Below the pieces are notes generated by a model. The model did not search any database. It saw nothing but the letters and a program-made list of their open reading frames with translations, and was not told the DNA's origin. Below are positions 36,850 through 37,895 of a DNA stretch of 64,000 bases, piece after piece. Numbering within the stretch: the first letter of the stretch is position 1; the number at the start of each line of letters is the position of its first letter. The stretch comes from a phage. The stretch is taken from the NCBI GenBank assembly GCA_022143435.1, contig GCA_022143435.1_3941.1; one strand, written 5' to 3'. The translations under genes and the position numbers were made by a program.

Positions 36850-37452
36850 GTGGAGCTAAATGCTATGAAACTGTTAAATATCAAAATCACTGGTACTCGT
36901 CCTTTCCTGAGCCATGCTGATACTCTGTCAGACCCTTTAAACCCTCTGACAAAATATCACAAGTCTCTGTCCAGTAAACGTAAAAAGACTGACGAAGACT
37001 ATGCGCTCTTAGCAGAAAGTCAACTGGTAACTTCTTGTTGCTACGATGAGCAACTAGGTTTTGTTATGAATGGTGAGATGATTGAGGCTTGTATCAAGTC
37101 TGGTGCAAAACTCAACAAACTTGGTAAGGTAATTGACCGAGCCATTATGCTGACAGATGTAGTCTTCCCAATGACTATCAAGAACTGTCCAGCAAACCCA
37201 CAAGAACTTGCTAAGAATCCAGATTTTATCTATGCTAAATCTGTTAAGATTGGTACAGCACGAGTTATGAGCTACCGTCCAATCTTCCGTGATTGGTCTG
37301 TAGAGTTTGGTTTGATGTTCGATGAAGAGCAAATTACCCGAGAGGAACTCCTGATGGTTCTGGAAAATGCTGGCAACCTTTGTGGTGTAGGTGATTGGCG
37401 TCCACGCTTTGGTCGTTTTTCTGTAGAAGTTATTTCAGAAGGTAACGTTTAA
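36850..37452 (+). CDS. Hypothetical protein (probable start ATG 36865 after GGAG RBS)
   Basis: ORF bracketed by the composite repeats. Confidence 0.45.
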
Positions 37453-37454
37453 TT

Positions 37455-37895
37455 ATGAATACAAAAGCATTAGCAGCAAAGTTTAGTTACGGTGACACTG
37501 TATCACATTCTGAGATGGACACCTTCTTAGGTATTGTGAAGCCAACTTATCAAGGTGACATTGTTAAGTACGAAGATGAAATGAAGGCTTATGCACTTAC
37601 ACGTCTAAACCGACTTGAGAAGTTTATTGAAAAGCTTCTTAAAGAAGAGAAGATTTATCTGGTTGCTTCAATGGGTGTTGGTTATCGTGTGGTTGAACCT
37701 AAGCATCAAGCAACTATTGCAAAACGTAAAATGTCTGGTAAGATTGGTCGTGCTTTAAAGCAAGCCACTCAAGCGATTGAGAATGTGAATACTATGGCAC
37801 TTAGTCATCAAGAACGTTCACGACTGATTGAACAGCAAAACCATTTAGCTGCTATGAAAGCTAACATTAACAAGCAACGTAGAAAACCTTTCTAA
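37455..37895 (+). CDS. Hypothetical protein
   Basis: ORF; no recognised motif. Confidence 0.45.
   Translation: MNTKALAAKFSYGDTVSHSEMDTFLGIVKPTYQGDIVKYEDEMKAYALTRLNRLEKFIEKLLKEEKIYLVASMGVGYRVVEPKHQATIAKRKMSGKIGRALKQATQAIENVNTMALSHQERSRLIEQQNHLAAMKANINKQRRKPF

Follow-up and report, generated by a model that had tools for sequence, protein, structure and literature searches.

A type II VIPR system of the SUSP1 clade in a Felix O1-like phage, with guides predicted to aim at an Escherichia coli satellite

The locus at 36462-38273 of the window, the whole 64-kb stretch of phage DNA analysed here, is identified with high confidence as a complete type II VIPR system of the SUSP1 clade, with which a Felix O1-like phage most likely silences a satellite. 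The source phage is a Felix O1-like myovirus, and five vrRNA genes flank the protein genes vipr and vap1, two of them upstream and three downstream (Table 1). The system is already known through preprints: it is a near-identical orthologue of the SUSP1 VIPR and not a new kind of system. The additions from this phage are modest, namely an extra upstream vrRNA, an apparently truncated U4, a guide-to-target map and an orphan unit in relatives that have no vipr.

VIPR (Viral Interference Programmable Repeat) was first described in 2026, and its mechanistic literature consists of two non-peer-reviewed preprints from one laboratory (10.64898/2026.04.26.720920,.720927). Its components are Vipr, a Vipr-accessory protein (Vap) and vrRNAs (10.64898/2026.04.26.720920). 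Vipr is a minimal RAMP that branches before Cas5, Cas6 and Cas7 and is proposed to predate CRISPR, and the vrRNA is built of 9-16 YNNGG repeats and a structured 3' tail, which in the SUSP1 clade is a pseudoknot (bioRxiv 10.64898/2026.04.26.720920,.720927). By cryo-EM there is one Vipr protomer per repeat, with GGY sequestered and NN presented (10.64898/2026.04.26.720927). The NN bases pair with dsDNA in an R-loop triplex that passes over one target base in three (the "1-nt skip rule"), resulting in programmable, PAM-less transcriptional repression, and protection is enhanced by Vap1 (bioRxiv 10.64898/2026.04.26.720920,.720927). Co-purification of ~100-nt vrRNAs with Vipr and repression of a matching reporter have been shown for SUSP1 and P. 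fulva, NN reprogramming redirects repression to a new reporter target in SUSP1, and the natural guides of the SUSP1 clade aim mostly at an E. coli satellite phage (10.64898/2026.04.26.720920). The Felix O1 genome paper and a related Salmonella phage paper contain no discussion of the cassette or its repeats.

Results

Organization of the locus

Region 36400-38400 matched 236 phage records, mostly at 90-95% identity and nearly all from Felixounavirus and its relatives. An ATP-dependent DNA ligase gene (35352-36455) lies upstream of the locus and a small secreted-looking ORF (38365-38748) downstream; genes for an HTH protein, DHFR and thymidylate synthase are among the other neighbours. A 188-aa ORF (33873-34439) that precedes the ligase gene by about 1 kb has HNH_3 (E 9e-15) and AP2 (E 6e-13) domains and is homing-endonuclease-like. 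Both protein genes are present exactly where the original prediction had placed them, 2 nt apart, and they are the sole sizeable + strand ORFs between the two repeat blocks, as it had also claimed. A GTG at 36850 is an alternative start for vipr and would give a protein of 200 aa.

Table 1. Features of the VIPR locus; positions are those of the window and vrRNA boundaries are approximate.
Feature	Position	Strand	Description
Sigma-70-type promoter TTGACA-16-TATACT	36462..36489	+	consensus scan, 11/12
vrRNA U1	36519..36675	+	5' inverted-repeat box; 17 GGYNN repeats 36553-36637 (12 canonical); tail 36638-36675
vrRNA U2	36676..36789	+	AAAGGTCTTT-type 5' box; 10 repeats 36705-36754 (9 canonical); tail 36755-36789
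vipr (gene 1, gpA)	36865..37452	+	195 aa from ATG; minimal RAMP (Cas7-like)
vap1 (gene 2, gpB)	37455..37895	+	146 aa; Vipr-accessory protein, predicted winged-helix-like DNA binder with a long helical hairpin
Intrinsic-terminator-like hairpin (AGCCTC-TTCG-GAGGCT) and T-run	37907..37930	+	directly after vap1; hairpin 37907-37922
vrRNA U3	37926..38045	+	AAAGGTCTTT-type box; 11 repeats 37955-38009 (10 canonical); tail 38010-38045
vrRNA U4	38046..38149	+	5' inverted-repeat box; 6-7 repeats 38077-38111 (5 canonical); tail 38112-38149
vrRNA U5	38150..38273	+	AAAGGTCTTT-type box; 12 repeats 38179-38238 (9 canonical); tail 38239-38273

A strong promoter had been expected in front of the genes and a clean terminator behind them. 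The near-consensus sigma-70 promoter does exist, although it precedes the first repeat block and not the gene directly; it is predicted to drive the upstream vrRNAs and probably vipr-vap1 too. A weaker promoter site (9/12) is found at 36820-36849. The expectation of a terminator was borne out by the hairpin and T-run right behind vap1. The strong promoter and its leader are shared with SUSP1 (L022) and Felix O1 (L004), and the terminator-like hairpin is also found in SUSP1. U3-U5 lie past this hairpin with no obvious promoter of their own, and their transcription is assumed by analogy with the SUSP1 small-RNA data. Directly 3' of the last vrRNA tail, a strong promoter-like site (TTGACA-17-TATTTT, 10/12, 38292-38320) sits within a 19-nt inverted repeat (38273-38319) and is kept in Felix O1; presumably it drives the downstream ORF87-like gene.

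Vipr and Vap1

Scans of Pfam, NCBIfam and PADLOC gave nothing significant for Vipr or Vap1, in line with the earlier remark that neither has a recognisable motif, and the matches found were to PHROG families of unknown function (phrog_4652, E 2e-94; phrog_5926, E 7e-76). When a Vipr family profile was searched against the PDB, it matched 36pp_D, 'SUSP1 Vipr protein', with an E value of 4e-80. Vipr itself was the sole significant sequence match in that search, with no detectable similarity to Cas proteins. The protein is identical to SUSP1 Vipr at 190 of 195 positions (97%), and Vap1 to SUSP1 Vap1 at 145 of 146. The published RNA/DNA contact residues, which read GGY and hold the DNA strands (bioRxiv 10.64898/2026.04.26.720927), are conserved without exception (13/13: H17, K33, R39, E71, M72, K82, G87, K88, R138, C173, D177, W178 and R179). 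Among them H17, K33, R39, G87, R138 and R179 are invariant or nearly so across 43 members of the Vipr family. Vipr is a minimal RAMP with a single RRM, a G-loop and a thumb, and its fold resembles Csm3, Cmr4 and Cas7. For Vap1, the AF2 model (pLDDT 77) has a helix/strand/wing topology followed by helices 82-109 and 118-143. Its Foldseek matches are weak (E 0.15-1) and many of them are winged-helix DNA-binding domains, which tentatively suggests that Vap1 may be a winged-helix-like DNA binder.

Several other roles were considered and dropped. A part in single-strand annealing or recombination, suggested by YqaJ, RecA and exonuclease neighbours in other phages, was abandoned on the Vipr structure match; a TRAP-like regulator and a Cas6-like processing enzyme were set aside once the profile had matched the solved Vipr structure. 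One GenBank record labels a repeat "possible binding site of StbAB", and no support was found for an StbA/B partition system.

The vrRNA genes

The GGTNNGGTNNGGTNNGG pattern (17 nt, at most one mismatch) has 34 matches in the 64-kb window, where 0.31 would be expected, and all 34 are on the + strand and confined to 36553-36756 or 37960-38240. The original prediction treated these repeats merely as enclosing the two genes; they turn out to be the system's own guide-RNA genes. Over 57 repeats, the first three positions are G in 46, G in 53 and T in 52, and positions 4-5 are mixed. The unit boundaries in Table 1 are approximate because the mature vrRNA ends are placed by analogy. The repeat count of U4 is under the published range of 9-16, and 5 of the 17 repeats of U1 are non-canonical. 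U4 looks like a truncated guide and may be defective. Its equivalent in phage dune (L003 3688-3757) has 12 repeats, and the difference in length looks like slippage between internal AG-CT-AG repeats, which means that guide length can change by recombination within the tract.

Nine distinct tail variants taken from the window, three relatives and three satellites support an H-type pseudoknot whose two helices have 4 and 8 pairs. Compensatory changes were found in 9 of the 12 pairs, and the tail of U3 is one that has compensatory changes in its stem. The pseudoknot cells were paired in 82% of cases compared with 26-50% when the partners were slid, and none of 500 shuffles reached the observed value. 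Rfam returned sub-threshold noise only at the locus, with no CRISPR direct-repeat family.

Predicted guide targets on an E. coli satellite

Comparison of the locus with 5,426 complete E. coli genomes gave an ~80-nt vrRNA-like match in 147 of them, in unannotated DNA. The part of the locus that matched is U2, and its counterpart is the satellites' own vrRNA. The satellite is an ~11.6 kb island on which a serine recombinase, a tape-measure protein and a phage baseplate protein are encoded along with small ORFs; in JML285 and O55:H7 DEC5B it is inserted in the DUF72-domain gene adjoining yecN, and it occupies other sites in other strains. The island fits the satellite described in 10.64898/2026.04.26.720920.

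The guides were scanned by scoring their NN dinucleotides under the 1-nt skip rule, with order-shuffled guides and skips of 0, 2 and 3 as controls. On the JML285 satellite (L014), U1 matched 28 of 34 NN bases (shuffle mean 20.8) and U5 22 of 24 (shuffle mean 16.8), and in neither case did any of 500 shuffles reach the observed score. In four other satellite variants that retain its site, U1 scored 26-31/34, always inside the one 107-aa ORF, and all 16 of the skipped bases fall on codon position 3. U5 scored 22-23/24 in four intact variants, 21/24 in a degraded remnant and 17/24 in L018. The predicted U5 target, AAAATGCTAATATTGTATATATAGGTTAACAGAAT, overlaps the -10 hexamer and start region of a leftward promoter (TTGACA-17-TAATAT) and lies 30-64 bp ahead of the gene that opens the leftward operon. 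U3 reached 18/22 on variants L018 and L019, a score that the best among 500 order-shuffles of U3 on a larger locus equalled or exceeded. Its match includes 8 consecutive perfect dinucleotides and is intergenic within the operon of U5, and on these two features we consider the satellite a probable target of U3 as well. Under skips of 0, 2 and 3 the satellites gave background only, and no guide matched the 64-kb window itself above background. Thus at least two guides (U1 and U5), and probably three with U3, are predicted from sequence to aim at the ~11.6 kb E. coli satellite.

No convincing target for U2 or U4 was found on the satellites scanned, and these guides could recognise unsampled competitors. 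The best satellite matches of U2 (15-16/20) were at non-orthologous sites and were equalled by 47 of 500 shuffles. Its exact 1-nt-skip pattern was present in three IMG/VR contigs, all Flavobacterium-phage-like, AT-rich in context and from one project, and these were judged to be chance. The exact pattern of U3 was found in none of the viral contigs scanned; natural targets have mismatches, which an exact pattern does not allow. The 12-repeat version of U4 from dune gave background only on the satellites.

The periodic tracts call to mind TRAP, the trp RNA-binding attenuation protein, in which one subunit binds each (G/U)AG triplet and about 9-11 triplets recur in the trp leader with a spacing of 2-3 nt. 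We therefore weighed whether gpA, with or without gpB, binds GG triplets in its own leader and trailer and controls translation or termination of the operon with no target in trans. The 5-nt spacing of the triplets is like that of the TRAP sites in the trp leader, both proteins place one subunit on each RNA triplet, and U1 and U2 do lie within the 5' leader of the vipr mRNA. TRAP has a fold unrelated to Vipr, however, and is a closed ring that acts in cis on one leader RNA, whereas the spacer bases of VIPR carry information and read DNA in trans. NN is hypervariable between relatives while GGY is fixed, and NN matches satellites far above the shuffled controls, which would not be expected if the role were purely in cis. 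Satellites have a solo vrRNA without the genes, and in other phages the arrays may be solely downstream of the genes. Autoregulation of this kind is hardly credible, and the tracts are best read as vrRNA guides.

Distribution of the cassette

Of the 119 phage records in which vap1 is present, 109 reach an amino-acid identity of at least 99%. The vipr gene is present in 118 Ounavirinae records at 96% identity or more and in 12 distant phages, which include Pseudomonas Medea1, Mycobacterium LittleE, Gordonia Trine and Listonella phiHSIC. The flanks of the locus are matched in 261 records as compared with about 119 that have the cassette, so that a little under half of the relatives carry it. The accessory, moron-like layout that had been proposed is in keeping with this distribution, with the lack of both genes in Felix O1 and with the varied positions of the distant gene pairs. 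Neither gene is homologous to conserved replication or structural proteins of all relatives.

The distant homologous pairs are located beside a cI-like repressor, in the capsid/tape-measure interval or in an antisense island between portal and terminase. In six of six distant contexts the vipr homologue is directly followed by a partner of 156-182 aa with the G-x-GYR(V/I)V-P motif of Vap1, and GGYNN tracts on the same strand accompany the pair in all six but L013. The distant tracts that were read in detail are followed by a short hairpin, and in high-GC hosts the distant tracts are GGC-rich. Since the tracts accompany the distant gene pairs, the repeats count as a third, conserved part of the module and not as its boundaries. 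In actinophage-like skin-metagenome contigs, a 134-aa ORF has been called directly upstream of vipr over three GGC-rich vrRNA tracts (L005 5507-5911, also L006 and L007), and this protein call on top of a guide-RNA array is in all likelihood spurious. A record of Staphylococcus phage SA1 (GU169904.1, 91236-92263) encodes Vipr and Vap1 at 99% and 100% identity to the enterobacterial Felix O1-like versions, which suggests a chimeric or contaminated assembly.

These data also bear on the function first proposed for the cassette, anti-defence or host takeover. On that account the proteins alone would act on host immunity as a moron, and the repeats would be recombination boundaries or regulatory DNA. 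An accessory and polymorphic cassette with a predicted early-type promoter agrees with it, as do the moron-like positions of the pair in other phages and the single hybrid unit of Felix O1, which fits a deletion by recombination between repeat units. Against this, Vipr shares 97% of its residues with an RNA-guided DNA binder whose structure and function have been characterised, and the cassette has no PADLOC match. The GGY/NN periodicity and the covarying pseudoknot are not expected of mere boundaries, the GGY/NN tracts stay beside the gene pair even at 35-45% protein identity, and the NN code points at specific satellite sites. We consider the protein-only account very improbable. The proposed function gives way to RNA-guided DNA binding and transcriptional silencing of a competing satellite (10.64898/2026.04.26.720920 and the target predictions above), and the original interpretation as a whole is partly supported.

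Orphan units in Felix O1 and satellites

In Felix O1 (NC_005282, about 57750-57900; L004 1100-1250), the interval between ligase and ORF87 is without vipr and vap1. It retains the promoter, the 5' leader box, one degenerate tract (6 of 12 repeats with canonical GGY) and the last pseudoknot tail. The simplest reading is that the repeated 5' boxes of two vrRNA units recombined and Felix O1 thereby lost the cassette, and the remaining vrRNA-like unit is probably the scar of that deletion. The orphan guide gave background only against the satellites.

On the satellites there is a solo vrRNA whose tail is of the SUSP1 type, and no annotated vipr-like gene (L014 19994-20100; L016 10494-10600; L015 and L017-L021, about 10480-10600). 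The guide of the ymdF-adjacent satellites (L015, L019) matches the yecN-adjacent satellites in the DUF72 gene (L014, L016, L018) at 21-23/26, as though one satellite type were targeted by another. The guide of the yecN-adjacent satellites L014 and L016 (NN = AG CC GA AA CG AG GC TC GG AA TT GC AT) matches AGGCCTGATAAGCGCAGCGCATCAGGC palindromes in host intergenic DNA at 21-23/26 against a background of 16-18, the sites being L014 24706-24743, L016 15068-15105, L018 16350-16387 and L021 19850-19887. We take these palindromes to be REP-like, and the matches to them could reflect genome-wide REP targeting or coincidence.

Comparison with related systems

The closest relative is the type II VIPR of Escherichia phage phiSUSP1 (NC_028808; PDB 36pp). 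It occupies the same site, with the DNA ligase gene on one side and the ORF87 homologue on the other, has the promoter, leader, terminator and vrRNA anatomy (5' box, GGYNN tract, pseudoknot tail) in common with the present locus, and aims its guides at the same satellite family. SUSP1 has four vrRNAs (1 + 3) as opposed to five here (2 + 3), the NN guide repertoire differs, and U4 is shortened here to about 6 repeats. The present phage belongs to the Felix O1 group, whereas SUSP1 is a Suspvirus.

The backbone proteins of class 1 CRISPR-Cas, the Cas7 family (Csm3, Cmr4, Csf2), have an RRM core, a glycine-rich loop and a thumb in common with Vipr. They are also alike in forming a helical filament on guide RNA with periodic base flipping (Vipr mechanism from 10.64898/2026.04.26.720927). 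The period is 5 nt in VIPR as opposed to 6 nt in the Cas7 family. Unlike that family, VIPR reads GGY sequence-specifically, and it pairs noncontiguously with 2 of every 3 target bases whereas pairing in class 1 systems is contiguous. The locus, unlike class 1 CRISPR-Cas, has no CRISPR array, spacers, adaptation genes, Cas5, Cas6, Cas8 or Cas10. Inspection for a repeat-spacer organisation found only 5-nt periodic tracts and tails, and with two ORFs only, no Cas5/Cas7/large-subunit effector, cas1 or cas2 is present.

This likeness raises the question of whether a solo Cas7-like protein and its repeat RNAs could poison host class 1 complexes in the manner of an anti-CRISPR. The fold similarity to Csm3, Cmr4 and Cas7 would suit such a decoy, and phage-borne RNA anti-CRISPRs that mimic CRISPR repeats were reportedly described by Camara-Wilpert et al. 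in 2023. These solitary repeat units (Racrs) are small structured phage RNAs related to a RAMP-binding guide scaffold and are sometimes found without a protein, in which respect the orphan units of Felix O1 and the satellites are comparable. Racrs mimic host CRISPR repeats and subvert host Cas proteins, whereas vrRNAs partner the phage's own Vipr and target DNA. The 5-nt GGY tracts are unlike CRISPR repeats and correspond to nothing in Rfam; the module is found in actinophages, xanthomonad prophages and enterobacterial phages whatever the CRISPR type of the host; and the guide-target matches follow the 1-nt skip rule. Direct programmable DNA binding has moreover been demonstrated in the preprints (10.64898/2026.04.26.720920,.720927). 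A decoy for host CRISPR is extremely unlikely in our judgement, and VIPR-type silencing is the reading that we retain.

Discussion

For this phage we computed the protein identities, RAMP fold, contact residues, vrRNA anatomy, pseudoknot covariation, skip-rule targets, absence of self-targets and distribution. The vrRNA expression, RNP formation, pairing code, repression and Vap1 enhancement come from the SUSP1 preprint experiments, and by analogy we infer that the same steps operate here. The strong early promoter would transcribe the vrRNA genes and vipr-vap1. Each vrRNA, of ~100 nt, would consist of a (GGYNN)n tract with a 3' pseudoknot cap, along which Vipr would polymerise with one protomer per 5-nt repeat, so that GGY is buried and the variable NN exposed. 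The exposed NN would then pair with dsDNA reading NNxNNx..., skipping every third target base and needing no PAM. The DNA-bound Vipr complex would block transcription, and the winged-helix-like Vap1 would boost the effect. On the satellite, U5 is predicted to sit over the -10/start region of the main promoter, U1 in the 107-aa ORF, and U3 in intergenic DNA of the same operon. We infer that the satellite parasitises this phage, and during infection the system most likely serves the phage as a means of silencing a parasite or competitor.

A further idea, to which we give a small chance, is that vrRNAs are portable guides that act in trans with the Vipr of another element. It is drawn from three observations: the satellites have a solo vrRNA with the same tail and no vipr, relatives without the gene, Felix O1 among them, retain an orphan unit behind an intact promoter, and the skip rule gives one satellite guide scores of 21-23/26 on host REP palindromes. 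If the idea is true, the parasite's guides would load the helper phage's Vipr and redirect it, possibly to chromosome-wide REP sites, and portable guides would add to the arms race a layer that the preprints do not cover.

With VIPR, RNA-guided DNA recognition has gained a newly reported class, which has a noncontiguous code, no PAM and a minimal RAMP. Through its identification here, two "hypothetical proteins" and two "repeat regions" become one annotated functional unit, and those labels are found again in the genomes of well over a hundred Felix O1-like phages, many of them candidates for biocontrol or therapy. The analysis supplies a concrete, predicted guide-to-target map for this phage and names the satellite that it would be fighting. 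It also suggests that the cassette is gained and lost as a block through recombination between vrRNA units.
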